Of a stretch of 32,000 nucleotides of DNA, positions 9,975 to 32,000 are shown piece by piece (within the stretch, counting starts at the first letter, position 1; every line of letters begins with the position of its first letter). Source of the stretch: Candidatus Harpocratesius repetitus (GTDB lineage: Archaea; Asgardarchaeota; Lokiarchaeia; Sigyniarchaeales; Promethearchaeaceae). The stretch lies in NCBI GenBank assembly GCA_021498095.1, contig JAIZWK010000001.1, forward strand, positions 540,001 to 572,000, read 5' to 3'. The position numbers and the translations under genes are program-made. The notes beneath the pieces were generated by a model, which saw only the letters and a list, made by a program, of their open reading frames with translations, searched no databases and was not told the origin of the DNA.

Positions 9975-12900
9975 TTACTTCTTTTTTAATTCTGAAAGTG
10001 CCGCTTGCATGATTTTATTTTGAGTATGGTGAGCTCGAATACTTAAAATGGCAATAACTCTATCTTTTATTTCTTTCCTTTCATATTTCACAATTCTTTT
10101 TAAAGCAAGAACAACAGATTCTTCCAACTGAATAGGGGATTCATCTGATAAATGAGAAAGCAATTGTGGTATAAGTATTTCTGAATCGATTTTTCTAGAT
10201 AATCTAACTAAGGCAGATATTGCTGCATTCCGGATGGTTTCTTTTGGATCTGCCATGAGTTTCACAAATATAGGAAATATAAGATTAAAGTTTTCTTGAT
10301 TTAATGTTCCAATCCATTTCACAAATGCAAGTAAAACTTCTTCATCTTCAGTAGAAATATGAATTCTTTCAAGAACTGATTTTATATTAACCATTTTTTT
10401 TTGGTCTTCATCCAAAGATCCCAGAATATTCAAAATAGATTTTCTAGTCCACTTGTTTGGATCTTCAAGTAATTTTAGAAGATTTGAAAATATTAGTGTA
10501 TCATGCGATTTCAGAGAAATTTCGACTAAACTTTTAAGACAAGTATTTTTTACACTGAAATCATCTTCTTTTAATCCTTTCATTAGGATACTTATTGCCT
10601 TTTTTGGAGTAGAACCTCCAATTATTCCTAATATAGTATAACCTTGCTCTCTTACAGATGAATCGACATCGTTTATCATAGTATTGATAAATTTCATTGA
10701 GATTAAATTAGGATCTTGTTTTACTAAACTTGAAATCATTTTTGCAATGGAGATTCTTAAAGATTTACTTGATGTCTTAAATGTCTTTAAAAGATCATTA
10801 AGAAAGGGCTTCAATTCAATTAAATTTGTGGAATTGACAGACTTAATGATATTTAGCAATTCAATTTTAATTTTATCTGAGGATTCCTTTTTCCAAATAT
10901 TAAATAGAGTTTTTGGAGATATATCAATAGAATGTATACTACAATAATCAGATAAGACACGTACAGCATTAATTTTTGAATTATCATTCTTTGAAGAAAT
11001 GTTTTGAATAAGTAAGGGAATAATCTGGTTTGGAAATTGCTTTGTAATGTTTAGTACTGTCTGTACAATTTTCCCACGTGTTAAAATACTTTCAGTGTCG
11101 GATTCTTTAATTAATTCTGAAACAATAAACTTTGGATCTTGTTGAGCCATCTCAATTAATTGAGATTGAGCAATTCCTGCAAAATCTCCATCATTGGATT
11201 TAATGTATAATTTTAACACCGAAAGAACTTTTGAGGGTGCCTGTTTCCAGATATATGGAAAAAGCGAAATAAAGAGTTTCTGAATCTCGAAAGATTTTCC
11301 TTTTGCGGCGTTTAGCAAATAATCAATAGAAATACCAAATGGTTTTTCTTGAAGATACGATTTAAGTCCCAGAAAGGCAGCATTTCTTATAGAAATATTG
11401 TGATCAAATAAATGATCTTTGAAAATATCAATGGGAATATGATTTTTTTCGAAATCTCCAATCTTAGCAAGAGTCTCCAATATTATTGCTTTAGTCTTTG
11501 GATTAACACTTGAAGTCATTTCTATTAATTTCGATATACTTAATGATTCTATATCAATTGTTGCAATTTCACCCGCAATTCGAGCCACTGCTTCTTGAAT
11601 TTGGGGATGTGGATCATTTAATCGAGAAATGAAAATTGAATGGTCTACTTGATCTGGAAATGCAGAAAGAATACGGAGAACTTTCCCTTGAACATTATAA
11701 TCTGGATAATTTAAGAGAGAAAGTAATTTTTGCCGCAATTTAGAACTTAGTTTTTGATTCATATCATTTGATGTATATTTTAAAAATAATATTTGTAGAC
11801 ATAATTCTTTATGAAAGTGATTTCTATTTGAGAGAATACTAAGAAACAAATCTTCATTGATTTTTTGAAGACATTGAAGAGTATCATTAGAAAAACATTC
11901 CAAAATTGAAGTAACCATATCAGGATTCTCTGATTTGAGCCCAATTTCAACAAGGGGGAAAAATTTCTCAGGATATTCAATCATTAACCTTGTGAATAGT
12001 TTTTGGCTCCAATAATACCCATAAATAAATGTTCTATCAGATAAAGCATCAAAAAGAGGATCTATAAATCGATCTTGATCAAAACTTAATCCCCGTTTAT
12101 TTGGAATCCTTAAATACATTCGTTCTAGTGATTCATAGGCAAATTTTTGTTCGGATTCTGGTTGATAACGAATCATATTAAAACCAGGAATTGGATTAAA
12201 CTTCTCTTCTGCCGATGTAACTGTTCCTATAAATGCATTTCGAATAGCTTTATGGTTTTTTTGAATAAAAAAGAAATAGGAAATTATTACAAAAAGCATG
12301 AATTCTTCAATAACTCCAATTAAATTCAACTCAGTATAGAGTTCAACGCGATTCCCATATTTATTAATTCCACGTAAATCGTAAAAAGTTGCAGTAATAT
12401 CCCATTTCATAAATAATTCTTGAAAAACATAAGGTCTAGCAATTAAATAATTAAGCATTATATTAATTCCCATCGCTGCAATTAAGAAAGTGGAAAATAG
12501 TATAGATTGTGTGGAAGATTTTACTTTTCGTTTCCAATATCGATTAAAGTATGCAGTAATGGCCAAGGCGAGAGAAATAGGAATAGACCAATCTACATTG
12601 TACCATGATACTGTATATGGAACATAGTTAATATCAAATCGAGAAATAGTTGCAACTGTTCGATAAATAAAATAAATATAAGAATAGAAAAGAGTTCCGT
12701 AAACAATATAGGTCATAGGATCTCTAAAGAATTCCTTTATAGCACGATTACTTTGATCAAAATGTAGAAAAGTAGATCGAGGTAAATGGGGAAGACTGAT
12801 AGTAAAGATACCAAAGGCGATTATATAGCCTACTGATGCATAGTAAAGAATAATGACCATTGGATAAATTAACTGCCAACTAAGCCACGCAATAATAAAT

Positions 12901-13412
12901 TTCACATGGAACACTAAAGTCAATAATACAGGGGGAAGAACAATAGCTAATCCATAGATAATTATAGCTAAAACATAACTCCAAGGTTTTGAGAAGTATT
13001 TGATTAATTTTTCAAAAGGTTGTTGAAAAGGAGTGGTACTAATTTCATGAGAAAAATGAGCCATGAAAAGAAATTCAATAAGTGGATAAATTGAAATAAA
13101 AGTTAAACAGAAAATAAGCGGAATTAGAAGAAATACTGCTTGATCTTGATAACCCCAATCATTTAAATCAAGAATAAAGGTTACAATTGTTGTTGCTACA
13201 ATAGTTAAGCCATTTCCAAAGAAAAAGGCGAAAATTATGCATTTTAAAGTATCATTCCATTTCCAAAATTCCTTTTTTACCAATTTTACTTGTGATGCCA
13301 TGAGATAATATCCAGCAAGAAAGCTAAGGATAAGAAATATAATTAAACCGATTGTCCATGAATTTATTGAAGTAGGAATACTAAATATATCCCAGATATC
13401 CTTGAATTTCAT
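9975..13412 (-). CDS. Polytopic membrane protein fused to a long HEAT/ARM-repeat alpha-solenoid
   Basis: About 8-10 hydrophobic helices in aa 1-385, then many HEAT-type units (LNDPHPQIQEAVA, LFDHNISIRNAAFLGL, INDVDSSVREQGYTIL, LKEDDFSVKNTCLKSL, LEDPNKWTRKSILNIL, MADPKETIRNAAISAL). Confidence 0.85.
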   Translation of the reverse strand: MKFKDIWDIFSIPTSINSWTIGLIIFLILSFLAGYYLMASQVKLVKKEFWKWNDTLKCIIFAFFFGNGLTIVATTIVTFILDLNDWGYQDQAVFLLIPLIFCLTFISIYPLIEFLFMAHFSHEISTTPFQQPFEKLIKYFSKPWSYVLAIIIYGLAIVLPPVLLTLVFHVKFIIAWLSWQLIYPMVIILYYASVGYIIAFGIFTISLPHLPRSTFLHFDQSNRAIKEFFRDPMTYIVYGTLFYSYIYFIYRTVATISRFDINYVPYTVSWYNVDWSIPISLALAITAYFNRYWKRKVKSSTQSILFSTFLIAAMGINIMLNYLIARPYVFQELFMKWDITATFYDLRGINKYGNRVELYTELNLIGVIEEFMLFVIISYFFFIQKNHKAIRNAFIGTVTSAEEKFNPIPGFNMIRYQPESEQKFAYESLERMYLRIPNKRGLSFDQDRFIDPLFDALSDRTFIYGYYWSQKLFTRLMIEYPEKFFPLVEIGLKSENPDMVTSILECFSNDTLQCLQKINEDLFLSILSNRNHFHKELCLQILFLKYTSNDMNQKLSSKLRQKLLSLLNYPDYNVQGKVLRILSAFPDQVDHSIFISRLNDPHPQIQEAVARIAGEIATIDIESLSISKLIEMTSSVNPKTKAIILETLAKIGDFEKNHIPIDIFKDHLFDHNISIRNAAFLGLKSYLQEKPFGISIDYLLNAAKGKSFEIQKLFISLFPYIWKQAPSKVLSVLKLYIKSNDGDFAGIAQSQLIEMAQQDPKFIVSELIKESDTESILTRGKIVQTVLNITKQFPNQIIPLLIQNISSKNDNSKINAVRVLSDYCSIHSIDISPKTLFNIWKKESSDKIKIELLNIIKSVNSTNLIELKPFLNDLLKTFKTSSKSLRISIAKMISSLVKQDPNLISMKFINTMINDVDSSVREQGYTILGIIGGSTPKKAISILMKGLKEDDFSVKNTCLKSLVEISLKSHDTLIFSNLLKLLEDPNKWTRKSILNILGSLDEDQKKMVNIKSVLERIHISTEDEEVLLAFVKWIGTLNQENFNLIFPIFVKLMADPKETIRNAAISALVRLSRKIDSEILIPQLLSHLSDESPIQLEESVVLALKRIVKYERKEIKDRVIAILSIRAHHTQNKIMQAALSELKKK

Positions 13413-17415: not shown

Positions 17416-19851
17416 ATGGCTCTTTTGCTTTCTGCAGAAAAAGTAGATGAATTTTTCGGGATAAAATCATCCATGTTTAAAAGGTTTAGATCTTCGATTA
17501 ACTTAAAGCAGAAAGAAGATGCTATCTTTCAAGAGAAATTTAACATTGGATATAAAAAATGGAAATTATTCTTCCGATCTTTCTATAGTGAAGTTAATTT
17601 AAGTAGAAATCTCTATTTTCTTCATATTTATTGTGTAATTCTGGTAAAAGGTTTGCAATTTATTTTTTTTTCTACTTATTATTTTAACGATATAACAGAG
17701 AAAATGAAAGAGGAAAAGAAAGATAACAAAAAAGTGAACAGGAAAAATATTACTAAATTAAATGATTTTTTTCCAGAAATATTCGATTTAGATTTTTTCT
17801 CTTGGATTTTTCAAGATAATCAGTTGTACTCATTAATTCAAAACCTTTTTCAAGCAGATTGTTTTTATCGACTCAAGAATTCATCAATATCAATTCCTTC
17901 TGATTTGTTTCATGTTTTTTATCAAAATTTAATCAGTTCAGAAGTTCGCCATAATCTGGGAGAGTTCTATACTCCACCTGAACTAGCAAATCAAATGATC
18001 AAAAATCGCTATAAGTTTGGACTAAAAATTATGGATCCAGCATGTGGAACTGGTGTATTTTTAATAGAAATTATAAAAGAAATAATCAACAAATCAGATC
18101 GTTCAAAGAAAGATAAATTAAGTGCTCTTAAACAAATCTATGGATTTGATATTAATCCTATTGCATGTCTTTTTGCCAAATTGAATTTTCTACTAACTCT
18201 TCACTTTCATGGGATAGAATATCCAATTAATGAACTTCATATTTATAATGAAAGCGTACTGTTTTGGAAAAACAAGTTCTTTCCAATATCTATGATACAA
18301 AAGAAGTTTGACTTAATAATTGGTAATCCTGCTTGGATCACAGTGAAGAGTATGCAGGATTTAGAATATAAGGAGCAAATAAAAAACCTTGCGAAAATAC
18401 TGGAATTAAAACCAACTACTCATCAAATACCTAATATTGAAATCAGTGCACTTTTCTTTTACCAATGTCGAGATTATTTGGTAGTTAAAGGTAAAATAGG
18501 ATTTATTGTAAGTAAGGCTTTTATTAATGGAAGCAATCATGCATTAACGCGGAAATTTACGGATTTTGATGAAATTTCAATTTGGACTTTTGATAAAAAT
18601 TTATTTCCTATATCAAATATATGCTTATTTGCAAGATATAATCCTCCTTTGAGAAGAACCGAAGAAGAATTAAAAGAATTACAAATTGAAGAAATTCAGT
18701 TTCAAATTGAAAAAATAGGACAAAGCTTAAGAATTAAACAATTAAATCGTATTTTCTTGGTTCCGTACAGAATTGAAAAGCATAAAAACCAGCTGCTGGT
18801 TACTAAATTAATAGGATTAAAAGAAAAAAAGGCATTAACAGAGCTACTCCCTCACGGAATAAATCAATATAAGAATTCATGCTATCGTGGAGCAGATATT
18901 TTTCCCCGTGCTTTACTTTCTGTCTTTCCAAAACAAAGTTCTTCTGGTAGGATATTTATTCAACCTATAACAAATGAGTCTAAATTGACTTGGGATTTCG
19001 ATCTTGAAAAAAAATTGGAAGAATTCCCCGAAATAATTAAAAAGGGAAAAATTTTCATGGATTCTTCTTATATTTTTCCTGTTTTGAAAAGTAAACACTT
19101 GGTCCCCTTTACATATCTTTACTGGGATTATGCTTTTATTCCCATCCAGGAAAATAAAAAGACGGGCGGGTATGCTCGTATCTCAGAATCAGAAACATTA
19201 GCTTGGCGCTATTATCAAGTCTTAGAACAAATTTTCCAACAAAATTTCAAAACAGGTGCATCTATTCGGACTTTATGGGAAAGAATGAACTATCATAATA
19301 ATTTAATCCAACCTAGGCATCGAAGTCCGTATAAAGTTGTTTATCAACGGAGTGGATCATATGTAAAGGCTTGTATTATTAAGGAACCAAAAGTTATTGT
19401 CGATACAACTAACTATTTTCTTGCTTTCTCAAATTTAGATGAAGCATATTATGTATTAGGCTTCTTAAATGCTCCAGATTTAACTAAAGCTATTCAAATC
19501 GAAAAATCTGCGCGTGATATTCACAAGCTTCCCTTTACATTCTATTTACCCAAATTTGATCCAGACGACCAAAACCATCAAAATCTTATAAAACAAGCCC
19601 AGATCATGGAGAAAAAAGCTAAACAAATCGCCTTATCTGCAGTTAAATCCTTTTTAAATAAAAATCAAGCAGAACTGAAAATTACAGAATTCTATAATGT
19701 ACCCGTTTTAAAGACAATTAAAGCGCGCCAAATTCAATCCCAAATCTATAATTCCTTAGGTTGGAATCCAAAAAAAGATAGCATTTCTGAAGATTTTGAA
19801 AAGTTGAATCATCTTGTTCGGTTAGTTGTTTCTGAAAATAAGAATAGTTGA
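17416..19851 (+). CDS. N6-adenine DNA methyltransferase (type IIG/Eco57I-like MTase plus target-recognition region), no evident nuclease domain
   Basis: LGEFYTP, SAM-binding motif I (IMDPACGTGVFL), YGFDINP, motif IV variant IIGNPAW, and a C-terminal TRD-like region (YKVVYQRSG...EAYYVLGFLN...RDIHKLP). Confidence 0.88.
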   Translation: MALLLSAEKVDEFFGIKSSMFKRFRSSINLKQKEDAIFQEKFNIGYKKWKLFFRSFYSEVNLSRNLYFLHIYCVILVKGLQFIFFSTYYFNDITEKMKEEKKDNKKVNRKNITKLNDFFPEIFDLDFFSWIFQDNQLYSLIQNLFQADCFYRLKNSSISIPSDLFHVFYQNLISSEVRHNLGEFYTPPELANQMIKNRYKFGLKIMDPACGTGVFLIEIIKEIINKSDRSKKDKLSALKQIYGFDINPIACLFAKLNFLLTLHFHGIEYPINELHIYNESVLFWKNKFFPISMIQKKFDLIIGNPAWITVKSMQDLEYKEQIKNLAKILELKPTTHQIPNIEISALFFYQCRDYLVVKGKIGFIVSKAFINGSNHALTRKFTDFDEISIWTFDKNLFPISNICLFARYNPPLRRTEEELKELQIEEIQFQIEKIGQSLRIKQLNRIFLVPYRIEKHKNQLLVTKLIGLKEKKALTELLPHGINQYKNSCYRGADIFPRALLSVFPKQSSSGRIFIQPITNESKLTWDFDLEKKLEEFPEIIKKGKIFMDSSYIFPVLKSKHLVPFTYLYWDYAFIPIQENKKTGGYARISESETLAWRYYQVLEQIFQQNFKTGASIRTLWERMNYHNNLIQPRHRSPYKVVYQRSGSYVKACIIKEPKVIVDTTNYFLAFSNLDEAYYVLGFLNAPDLTKAIQIEKSARDIHKLPFTFYLPKFDPDDQNHQNLIKQAQIMEKKAKQIALSAVKSFLNKNQAELKITEFYNVPVLKTIKARQIQSQIYNSLGWNPKKDSISEDFEKLNHLVRLVVSENKNS

Positions 19852-29139: not shown

Positions 29140-32000
29140 ATGACTTATATTAAACGAGTAGTAATGACGGGTTTCAAATCCTTTGGAAACCGAACAGTAT
29201 CAGTTAATCTTGCCAAAGGTTTTACATGTATTGTCGGACCAAATGGAAATGGTAAGTCCAATGTTATAGATGGGCTTTGTTTTGCTTTAGGGCGTCTGGC
29301 AAAATCGACTATGCGGGCAACAAAACTAACAGACTTAATCTTTGCGGGTTCCAAAAAGGTAAAGCCCGCTACTCGAGCAGAAGTTGAAATAGTATTTGAT
29401 AATAAAGATCGAGTCTTTCCTTCAGATTCTGATGAATTTAAGGTCTCTCGATGGATTAAACGGAGTGGAACTAGTGGCTACCGAATTCAAGGGAAAGCTT
29501 CAACCCGAACAGCTATTCTAAATGCTCTGGCTCAAGCTAATATTGATCCAGATGGTTCAAATCAATTTGTTCTCCAAGGAAAAATTGTAGAACTAACCCA
29601 TATGAGCCCAAATGCGCGTAGAGAATTCATAGAAATGTTAATTGGACTAAGTAAATATGATGAAATGAAAGATAAAACATTAAAAGAGTTAGAAAAAGCA
29701 GATAAAGATTTGGGACAATTTGAAGCAATTTTCAAAGAAGTATCAGTTCAATTAAAAAAAGTGGAAAAGGAAAAAAATGATGCTTTACGATGGAAAGAAC
29801 TTGATAATCAGGTAAATCTTTTCAATGCACAACTGATTGCCTTAAAGATCCATAAAATGCGCCAAGAAGAAGACGATATTGCCACAGAAATGGAATCCAC
29901 TCAGTTGGTGATTGAGGATTTAAAAAATCGAATTCAGCGCCAAAAAGATAAAATTGAGGCAGAAGCACTCTACTTAAAAGGTCTTGAAGAGGATATTTCT
30001 GCACAAGAGACAGAAAAATCCAAAATGGATGAAGAAATCACTTCTCAAAAATCAGAACTTTCAGCTAAAGAAGCAACTTTAAAAGCAACTGAAGAAAATT
30101 TAAAACGGCTTCAGCAAAATATCGAGAAATTAGAAGATCTTCAGCAAAAACTGGAAGAAGGTCAAACTTATGATGATTTAATTAACAAAACAAAAGAAGA
30201 AATTGAAAATCTTCAGCAAGCTTTAGATGAAAATTCAGGATTAATTGATGAAAATAAAGCGAAACAGAAAGAAGAAGAACAAATAATTGCACAAATAAAT
30301 AATGAAAAAGCCCAAATTAATAAAGAAATCTCCAAAATCAAACAGGATGGTAAAGCTTTAACTACTGAAATCAAGCTTTTGGAAAAAACTATTAAAAAGA
30401 ATGAGAAAAAGAGAGCTCAACTAGAAAAAGATTTGAAAAAGTTACAGAAAGACGCAGAAAGTGTAACTGAAGCGATGGAACAAGCAAAAAATGAAGCCAA
30501 ATCCATTCAAGAAAAAATTTCAACATTGAAAAAGCAAATTACTGAGCAAAAATCACTACAAAAACAACTTGATGGAGAAATCCAAAAGCTAGAAGTAAAA
30601 CGTGACAAATTTTCGAAATCACAAGCAGAAATTCAAGCTTCCATCTCTTCTGCAGGTGCAGAAATTAACATGCTTGAAACCCGTATACAAGAACTTGAAA
30701 AGAAGAAAAAAGATTATAGAAACGAGTATGAAAAACTAACAAAAGGCCAAGCAGTTGAAGACCAAATCAAAACTTTAAAAGTCGAAGAAAAAGAAATCTC
30801 ACAACAGTTAAAAAAGCTTAAAGAAAAACTTATTTCCGCAAATGATGAGCAAAAACGAAGTCAAAATAAACAAGAAACCTTGGAATTGAAACGACGAGCA
30901 TTAGAAGGAGAATTGACCGACCTTGAAAAACGTCTTTCTGGATTACGTGTTGAACTAAAAACGGCAGAATCAGAACTTCATACTTCACAACGGGAAAAAC
31001 AACATAAAGATATTATCAAAGAAAATTTAATAAAAGAAATTACAATCCAAAAAGAACAAAAAGAGAAATTGCAAAATCAAGTTGAAAATTTTCAAGCTAA
31101 AATAAACCAAATGAAAAAAGAGCGCGCTAAACTTCAAGAAACAATTGATAAAAAGGAAGAAGAATATGGTCAAACTCAACTTGAATTAAACACAGTACTC
31201 GATAATCTAACGAATTTGATTCAAGATATTGATCGCTCTGCAGGTGATATCAAATCTGATATTCAAAATGTTAGTCAAGTTGCAATTGATGAATCAGGAA
31301 AAGTTTTCAAAGAATTTGTGCTCGATGTCACCGATATGTTGCGATCTATAGAAGAAATATCAGAAATGAATCCTGAAGATCCAAAAGAAATCCAGGAACA
31401 ACTGAATTTTGCAGTAAATACTTTAAAATTATTAATTGAAAATGCAGAACAACCACTAATTCAACTTAATGAAGTCGTTCAAGATGCTAGTGATGAAGCA
31501 TTAAAAGAATCTACTGGTAATTTCGATGGATTTATACAAGATTTTACAGATAAATTCGATTCAATTCGTGTTGCTTTACAAGCTGTCGCAGTAGCAGATA
31601 CATCAGAACATTATCGAGCATTAGAGGATCTGAATTCTGCTATTAGTTCCCAATCTGAAGAGCTCTCGAAAATATCAGTTCAGCTAACTCGAATCACAGC
31701 TCAACTGGAACAAAAAGAACGTGAATTATCACAAATCAATTCGGAATTAAAACAGTTACAAACAAAAATTGATGAAGCAGAGAAGAAATCTAAAATAGGT
31801 AAAAAAGAAAATGAAGAAAAAACCAAAAAATCTGAAGAAATAAAAGAAGAAATCGCAAAAATAACCTCCACAATTTTAGATATAAAAAAATCTTCTGAAA
31901 ATTTTTGGAAACATACAAAATCCCTACAAAATGAAATCGATAAAAAAGCAGAAATTCTTTCACAAATTACTGAAGATCTAAATAAATTGAGCAATGTAAA
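29140..32000 (+). CDS. smc: SMC-family chromosome segregation ATPase (3' partial; absent from the ORF track), atypical long arm with no canonical hinge visible
   Basis: Hand translation gives 953 codons without a stop: MTYIKRVVMTGFKSFG...Walker A IVGPNGNGKSNVIDGLCFALG, R-loop MRATKLTDLIFAG, VFDNKDR, Q-loop FVLQGKI, then coiled coil from about aa 170. Confidence 0.93.
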   Translation, partial: MTYIKRVVMTGFKSFGNRTVSVNLAKGFTCIVGPNGNGKSNVIDGLCFALGRLAKSTMRATKLTDLIFAGSKKVKPATRAEVEIVFDNKDRVFPSDSDEFKVSRWIKRSGTSGYRIQGKASTRTAILNALAQANIDPDGSNQFVLQGKIVELTHMSPNARREFIEMLIGLSKYDEMKDKTLKELEKADKDLGQFEAIFKEVSVQLKKVEKEKNDALRWKELDNQVNLFNAQLIALKIHKMRQEEDDIATEMESTQLVIEDLKNRIQRQKDKIEAEALYLKGLEEDISAQETEKSKMDEEITSQKSELSAKEATLKATEENLKRLQQNIEKLEDLQQKLEEGQTYDDLINKTKEEIENLQQALDENSGLIDENKAKQKEEEQIIAQINNEKAQINKEISKIKQDGKALTTEIKLLEKTIKKNEKKRAQLEKDLKKLQKDAESVTEAMEQAKNEAKSIQEKISTLKKQITEQKSLQKQLDGEIQKLEVKRDKFSKSQAEIQASISSAGAEINMLETRIQELEKKKKDYRNEYEKLTKGQAVEDQIKTLKVEEKEISQQLKKLKEKLISANDEQKRSQNKQETLELKRRALEGELTDLEKRLSGLRVELKTAESELHTSQREKQHKDIIKENLIKEITIQKEQKEKLQNQVENFQAKINQMKKERAKLQETIDKKEEEYGQTQLELNTVLDNLTNLIQDIDRSAGDIKSDIQNVSQVAIDESGKVFKEFVLDVTDMLRSIEEISEMNPEDPKEIQEQLNFAVNTLKLLIENAEQPLIQLNEVVQDASDEALKESTGNFDGFIQDFTDKFDSIRVALQAVAVADTSEHYRALEDLNSAISSQSEELSKISVQLTRITAQLEQKERELSQINSELKQLQTKIDEAEKKSKIGKKENEEKTKKSEEIKEEIAKITSTILDIKKSSENFWKHTKSLQNEIDKKAEILSQITEDLNKLSNV

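Follow-up and report, generated by a model that had tools for sequence, protein, structure and literature searches.

The hinge is seen as the element for dimerisation and DNA gating in complexes of SMC (structural maintenance of chromosomes) proteins. Here we describe P0003, an SMC paralogue in which no hinge was detected, whose gene begins near the end of a 32,000-nucleotide (nt) stretch of Candidatus Harpocratesius repetitus (G000:C1:540001-572000, hereafter the window), and in which a genuine internal duplication very probably lies in a fold-back apex module that stands in the place of the hinge. With canonical Smc-ScpAB of B. subtilis or Pyrococcus (TIGR02168/TIGR02169, PF02463 plus PF06470), P0003 shares ABC-type heads with Walker A, signature and Walker B, a TIGR02168 score above cut-off, an antiparallel coiled-coil arm, and adjoining genes for a kleisin-like protein and ScpB. 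It differs in having no detected PF06470 hinge, in scoring below cut-off against TIGR02169, and in its acidic, duplicated helical-hairpin apex. Its arm strand, at ~520-570 amino acids (aa), is also longer than the ~360 aa of the canonical SMC in the same genome, both lengths being estimates from domain positions. The apex of Rad50 is the joining point of two arms. Rad50/SbcC resembles P0003 in that its apex is a helical hairpin tip without a globular domain; in contrast, P0003 has no CxxC motif and no cysteine in its arms, and its presumed partners are a kleisin-like and a kite protein rather than Mre11.

Two reports bear directly on this comparison. One describes a clade of SMC proteins without a hinge, found in metagenomes of marine Actinobacteria (PMC12153180). 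From its description, SMC-type heads and arms occur in that clade too, and both hinge and zinc hook are missing; unlike P0003 it is bacterial and known from metagenomes only, and the available part of the report describes no conserved tip module or operon. Some Asgard archaea carry three kite paralogues, each beside different SMC and kleisin genes, according to the main text of a preprint (bioRxiv 10.1101/2024.01.07.573240). The genome studied here fits that pattern, having three SMC genes each followed by a ScpB-like gene; hinge loss, a long arm and an apex module go unmentioned in that main text. We add the extent of the duplication, the predicted placement of its copies on opposite strands, a second protein family that carries the module, and its restriction, among the sampled genomes, to one order.

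The complete gene occupies L003:1141-5604 and encodes 1487 aa, with the midpoint of the protein at aa 743. Its parts within the window are as follows.

29140..32000, plus strand: 5' two thirds (aa 1-953) of the hinge-less SMC paralogue, from the open reading frame and its translation; the gene overruns the window end
29140..29649, plus strand: ATPase head, N-terminal half (aa 1-170); Walker A is GPNGNGKS, aa 33-40 (direct reading; SMC_N and AAA_23 matches)
29650..31206, plus strand: ascending coiled-coil arm strand, aa ~171-689, rich in heptads and in K/E, with 24% large hydrophobic residues
31207..31353, plus strand: repeat copy 1, aa 690-738, including the first 30-mer at 31261-31350 (HHalign)
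31354..31422, plus strand: linker, aa 739-761; MNPED, the predicted turn (aa 743-747, nt 31366-31380), falls exactly on the midpoint of the protein (DSSP on the AlphaFold2 model)
31423..31569, plus strand: repeat copy 2, aa 762-810, including the second 30-mer at 31477-31566 (HHalign)
31570..31644, plus strand: helical stretch, aa 811-835, that continues the apex module and is conserved, D820, T821, E823 and Y825 being invariant (alignment A1, 11 full-length homologues)
31645..31998, plus strand: first part of the descending arm strand, aa 836-953, which runs past the window to the C-terminal head (translation)

An earlier sequence-only reading of the window had noticed the two 30-mers, which translate as aa 708-737 and aa 780-809 of the forward frame starting at 29140, and had proposed from them a 72-aa internal duplication at the apex of a putative SMC. 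Their ungapped pairing with 12 identities in 30 positions was reproduced (BLOSUM62 score 49), and MNPEDPKE does lie between them. We do not accept the raw identity as significant by itself: six other 30-residue self-diagonals of P0003, all within K/E-rich coiled coil, score 49 or more, the highest reaching 62. Profiles give a much stronger signal. HHalign matched aa 690-760 to aa 761-835 with a probability of 92.9 and an E-value of 3.6e-7 over 49 columns (690-738 against 762-810), as compared with a best score of 15.8 and E 0.019 among 66 controls in which either half was compared with other 71-aa windows of the arms. With an alignment of 35 diverse modules (A3), the two halves matched each other at E 3.2e-11, with a probability of 97 over 51 columns. 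Subfamilies tested apart all gave the same register, at E 4e-7 for close SMCs, 1.3e-10 for distant SMCs and 2.9e-6 for a non-SMC family.

These alignments define a unit of ~50 aa with a period of 72 aa (aa 690-740 against 762-812). No alignment was obtained between aa 739-761 and aa 811-833, which leaves ~22 aa of each period outside the similarity. The proposed duplication is therefore real at the profile level and its period is 72 aa, but the similarity itself spans ~50 aa and not the whole period. At the DNA level, a repeat search found short, out-of-register matches only, the best being a 29-nt, 79% match at a spacing of 204 nt. The repeat is present in all homologues, down to 20-30% identity, as would be expected had the first reading been right about its conservation. 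Because the profile match is significant and falls in the same register in three subfamilies, the duplication is, on the evidence of protein sequence comparison, real and ancient.

By its heads and its partners P0003 is a member of the SMC family, though one without a detected hinge. Walker A, the ABC signature and Walker B are all present, divided between the N-terminal and C-terminal head halves. In the C-terminal head, direct reading places the signature LSGGEK at aa 1376-1381 and Walker B at aa 1400-1407, the Walker B region (aa 1400-1411) being FYIMDEIDAALD; in the N-terminal half (aa 1-170), 57% of positions are invariant among the 11 homologues. The protein matches PF02463 (SMC_N) at E 9.7e-51 and TIGR02168 (SMC_prok_B) at 592.2 bits, above the cut-off of 567.35, and scores 633 bits against TIGR02169, under the cut-off of 729. 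BLAST against the canonical 1206-aa SMC of the same genome pairs the heads, which are ~30% identical, and the head-proximal arms. To judge from the limits of that alignment, ~530 aa of P0003 (roughly aa 480-1013) would replace the canonical hinge and an adjacent stretch of ~190 aa. No match to SMC_hinge (PF06470) was found at E <= 0.1 in the whole of P0003 or in aa 600-900, and a six-frame search of the genome for PF06470 returned two matches only, both in other SMC genes and none in the P0003 gene. Nor is there a CxxC zinc hook, since aa 200-1230, which span the arms and apex, contain no cysteine at all. We rejected an identity as Rad50, whose NCBIfam models score 62-115 bits against cut-offs of 700-1087 and whose CxxC is missing; as RecN, whose model scores far under its cut-off; and as one of the archaea-specific SMC-related proteins (ASRP, NF045487), at 149 bits against a cut-off of 300. 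The closest database relatives, under their NCBI names, are Ca. Harpocratesius sp. (97% identity), Promethearchaeota archaeon and Ca. Lokiarchaeum ossiferum; Harpocratesius is placed in Promethearchaeaceae, Promethearchaeales.

The apex (aa 690-835) differs from its flanks in composition, as the sequence-only reading had noted. Hydrophobic residues make up 41% of it as compared with 28-30% of the arms, and with 31 D/E and 11 K/R it carries a net charge of -20; it contains seven Phe, three Pro and no Cys. It is also the more conserved segment, with 41 of 146 positions (28%) invariant among the 11 homologues, compared with 81 of 450 (18%) and 52 of 395 (13%) in the two arms, and 23 of the 41 invariant positions are polar. 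AlphaFold2, run on aa 630-890 with a 43-row alignment, predicts two helices, 631-742 and 748-889, joined by the five-residue turn MNPED at 743-747; by DSSP these residues, 114-118 of the fragment, are the sole non-helical ones. The mean predicted local distance difference test (pLDDT) score of the model is 77.9, with 64-80 in the apex and 87-91 in the flanks, and its predicted template modelling score (pTM) is 0.41. The position of the segment at the apex of an SMC is borne out by the heads, the length of 1487 aa and the coincidence of the predicted turn with the midpoint, and a fold-back within the Pro-containing linker, in place of a hinge, agrees with the MNPED turn and the missing SMC_hinge domain. 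The pseudo-symmetric helical bundle that had also been suggested fares less well. All-helical and pseudo-symmetric the model is, but it shows no distinct compact bundle: the prediction is of two long continuous helices in an ordinary hairpin, an outcome that the sequence-only reading had itself named among those that would count against its proposal.

In this model the chain is predicted to reverse inside the linker. The turn lies between the repeats, and the two copies would therefore stand on opposite strands, copy 1 ascending and copy 2 descending, related by a pseudo-dyad; antiparallel pairing of two homologous strands always gives a local two-fold axis. With the turn at ~aa 745, the axis would pass near the conserved Q709 and Q781, and the LxxLI start of each copy would lie opposite the paired Phe of the other copy, both placements depending on the predicted register. 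Mutual information across 48 non-redundant modules (effective number of sequences 30) gave its best antidiagonals at residue sums of ~1499-1504, with z of 2.0-2.7, which is weak after multiple testing; the turn of the AlphaFold2 model corresponds to a sum of ~1490. A pseudo-two-fold axis arising from a duplication is what would be expected of a module that descended from, or forms, a symmetric helical bundle.

Searches with the apex gave no described relative. Foldseek on the PDB with the apex model returned nothing at E <= 1e-3, and VIA-align reached Z <= 11.9, inside the helical background. The fold matches were all antiparallel hairpins of a generic kind, from SMC arm fragments, chemoreceptors, FliJ, the dynein stalk, prefoldin and Lamassu LmuB, and none rose above the background for helical models; no RecN-like or hook-like fold stood out in either search. 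Among the best of them was the cytoplasmic hairpin of methyl-accepting chemoreceptors (2ch7, 3g67, 1qu7), likewise a long antiparallel helical hairpin with its tip the most conserved part, at values short of significance (E 0.015 by profile, E 0.05 in Foldseek, and a VIA Z of ~11 that lies inside the helical background). Two chemoreceptor hairpins form a four-helix bundle, and the tip docks partners. We treat the likeness to chemoreceptors, and to hook-type or coiled-coil tips, as an analogy and not a relationship. A sequence profile search of the PDB with the apex returned coiled coils throughout, the best at E 0.0039; Pfam gave only sub-threshold coiled-coil families for aa 600-900, and a Protein Atlas search gave no cluster sharing a family. 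PF24161 (CCDC39, a coiled-coil family) appears in the precomputed domains of homologues and was set aside as noise, having no match in the genome search. Among Pfam, PDB sequences, solved folds and the Atlas, the apex module thus gave no significant match to a described family, and it may be a new one; no account of it was found in the literature searched.

A phmmer search with aa 685-840 as the query, run exhaustively over 1.84 billion representatives, returned 28 proteins, which fall into two groups. The first consists of SMC paralogues of the same architecture, 1464-1497 aa long, with the module at ~688-836 and identities down to 23-34%. Across 151 sampled genomes of the phylum, the module was detected only in the order of the window (f1, the family of the window itself, and its sister family f2), plus one weak match; its motif is no general feature of Asgard SMCs, one order alone having it among the sampled genomes. 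Within that order, 37 of 41 sampled genomes encode the hinge-less SMC, in reading frames of ~1455-1509 aa in which the module is always central. Strong matches to a canonical hinge (E < 1e-28) came from 10 of 14 f1 genomes, 3 of 4 f29 genomes and only 3 of 22 f2 genomes. SMC_N searches of four f2 genomes with 99-100% completeness detected a hinge-less protein of ~1488 aa, an SMC of ~1160 aa with a weak hinge, and nothing else; in a fifth f2 genome such a search detected a canonical SMC as well. The hinge-less protein appears, from these searches, to be the only condensin-type SMC in most f2 genomes. It is not a decaying copy, because no other condensin-type SMC was detected in the four genomes of 99-100% completeness.

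The second phmmer group (~920-1180 aa) has the module twice near the N-terminus, then a middle region judged beta-rich by eye and a lysine-rich tail, and no Pfam domain. One member is encoded in the genome studied here:

L026:3997-7122 = G000:C1:3819996-3823121, minus strand: P0045, 1041 aa, with the module at aa ~75-228 and again at aa ~328-481, and no Pfam domain

Beyond its modules P0045 has such a region, which to the eye seems rich in beta structure, then a coiled coil, and finally a K/T-rich tail resembling histone H1. AlphaFold2 predicts four long helices for the N-terminal ~500 aa, with turns at aa 132-134, 257-261 and 384-387. This separate run on the tandem modules (aa 15-540, mean pLDDT 85.4), whose module is ~25% identical, puts turns at the position aligned with that of P0003. 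In Foldseek the 526-residue tandem-module model reached TM-scores no higher than 0.34, most of them under 0.25. In the first P0045 module, short helix breaks are predicted right after the A-I-x-E-S motif in both repeat copies; the corresponding residues of P0003 are conserved Gly or small ones (G720, T792-G793). Because of this correspondence, the tip may be segmented rather than a rigid rod. Among the 41 genomes of the order the P0045 family was found in f1 only; it was not found in 22 f2, one f28 and four f29 genomes, 23 of which keep the hinge-less SMC with its conserved apex.

Downstream of the SMC gene lie genes for its presumed partners. P0046, a 366-aa kleisin-like protein, is encoded on the plus strand at L003:5656-6756, 1.6 kb past the window end and between the SMC and ScpB genes. 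It has no direct Pfam match, shares 40% identity with an orthologue of another family, which in turn matches ScpA and Rad21/Rec8 below threshold, and is set by the Atlas near ScpA clusters (its neighbours bear ScpA); from these similarities we infer that it is a kleisin. P0046 opens with ~80 residues that are almost all K, S, T or P, a histone H1-like tail of the same type as the C-terminus of P0045, and lysine-rich where the SMC apex has a net charge of -20. P0047, two genes downstream of the SMC (L003:6783-7778, plus strand), is a ScpB (PF04079, E 1.2e-33). Its N-terminal extension of ~160 aa is acidic and holds tandem repeats of the type EEIDTEE(K/R)IGE; orthologues elsewhere are N-terminally extended too, the ScpB domain spanning aa 98-242 in a protein of 260 aa and aa 128-277 in one of 294 aa. 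The order of SMC, kleisin-like and ScpB genes is kept in the P0015-bearing single-contig genome of 6,035,313 bp (L. ossiferum at NCBI), and is looser in one f2 genome. In the f2 genome G030, a gene for a Ras-family small GTPase (L047:2868-3410, minus strand; PF00071, E 2e-39) sits between the hinge-less SMC gene and the ScpA/ScpB genes.

What does the apex do? On balance we think it probable that the ancient duplication constitutes an acidic, all-helical apex module of ~150 aa that stands for the hinge in a long-armed, condensin-type SMC paralogue. The MNPED turn would reverse the chain, with copy 1 ending the ascending helix and copy 2 early in the descending one; the two copies would pack antiparallel about a local pseudo-two-fold axis, and the module would act as the fold-back element. 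We propose a further interface because of the surplus hydrophobic positions and the 23 invariant polar positions: the extra hydrophobic face and the invariant polar residues would serve a second contact, the likeliest being tip-to-tip self-association of two SMC hairpins, in a four-helix bundle that would do the dimerisation job of the hinge. That the module is a dimerisation element is quite possible, though we stop short of calling it probable. A complex prediction for two copies of aa 630-890 (alignment A2, without controls) scored 0.30, the mark being 0.42, and gives no verdict either way. The fuller proposal, in which a self-associating all-helical 'hinge' closes the SMC-kleisin ring without an alpha/beta hinge, in most f2 genomes as the only condensin-type SMC, and in f1 also docks the lysine-tailed double-module protein, is tentative and rather unlikely to hold in every part. 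Several observations weigh against the explanation favoured here. The model of the monomer is a plain hairpin of two helices from which no separate bundle stands out, its apex pLDDT and its pTM are limited, and fold searches recover generic hairpins only. The strongly acidic surface would oppose close packing of two copies unless it were screened. The genome studied here also keeps a canonical, hinge-bearing SMC alongside P0003, as do at least 12 more of the genomes sampled from the order, and no case for an essential apex can therefore be built on this genome.

A plain hairpin is also what one would predict if the module were a fold-back cap and docking platform only, with the protomers linked through their ATP-engaged heads, through the kleisin and by the zipping of their arms, and not at their tips. 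The acidic tip would then bind, for example, the lysine-rich N-terminal tail of the kleisin, or the heads or kite when the arm bends. The net charge of -20, set against the ~80 K/S/T-rich residues that open the adjacent kleisin-like protein, speaks for such a role, and the large share of polar residues among the invariant apex positions would suit a specific binding surface. However, so high a hydrophobic content is easier to reconcile with a buried interface than with one that is electrostatic alone, and to our knowledge the apex is where every well-studied SMC-family protein with long arms is joined, whether through a hinge, through a zinc hook or through a coiled-coil tip; we consider a docking platform alone unlikely. 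Shared modules often mediate like-with-like association, and the occurrence of the module twice in proteins with a histone H1-like tail, one of them encoded in the same genome, would be consistent with an apex that is a heterotypic docking site for the P0045 family, recruiting a lysine-tailed and probably DNA-binding protein through the pairing of like modules. This is quite improbable as the main role: the P0045 family is limited to f1, whereas the 23 sampled non-f1 genomes mentioned above keep the hinge-less SMC with a conserved apex, and pairing with P0045 is therefore not the general function of the module. Finally, the similarity between the copies might be a chance or heptad-driven match and the region just more arm, a reading that draws on the six self-diagonals equalling or beating the raw score. 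It is hardly credible, and we regard it as refuted, given a profile E of 3e-11 against E >= 0.019 in all 66 arm controls, the common register of the three subfamilies, and an apex whose composition and conservation are unlike those of the arms.

Whichever contact the tip makes, a conserved tip, predicted to be a helical hairpin, takes the place of the hinge across a whole Lokiarchaeia order in an Smc whose partners are a putative kleisin and a ScpB, and this in a lineage that includes cultured Asgard archaea. If the tip self-associates, this would be a natural experiment on the need for a hinge, one in which the hinge proved replaceable in a natural Smc-ScpAB. If it does not, the result would be an SMC complex whose arms are unjoined at the apex, equally informative for models of loop extrusion and DNA entrapment. 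A defined fragment of ~250 aa around the apex is testable in vitro.

The two remaining SMC genes of the genome differ from each other in their hinges. The canonical SMC (1206 aa) has a strong hinge match, at E 5e-32. The divergent one (1188 aa) has a weak hinge match, and its gene is followed by those for a 268-aa protein and a weak ScpB-like protein. Their loci are:

G000:C1:1712176-1716392 (L024): one of the two other SMC genes
G000:C1:1238999-1243949 (L025): the second of the two

Elsewhere in the window, ~16 kb from the SMC gene, the minus strand encodes a 1145-aa HEAT/Armadillo-repeat protein (9975-13412). It has a weak match to Cnd1, a condensin non-SMC subunit, at E 8.6e-7 with no single stretch significant, and is a possible hawk-like protein. 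On the plus strand, 17416-19851 encodes an 811-aa protein with N6_Mtase, Eco57I and MmeI domains, probably a type IIG/IIL restriction-modification enzyme.

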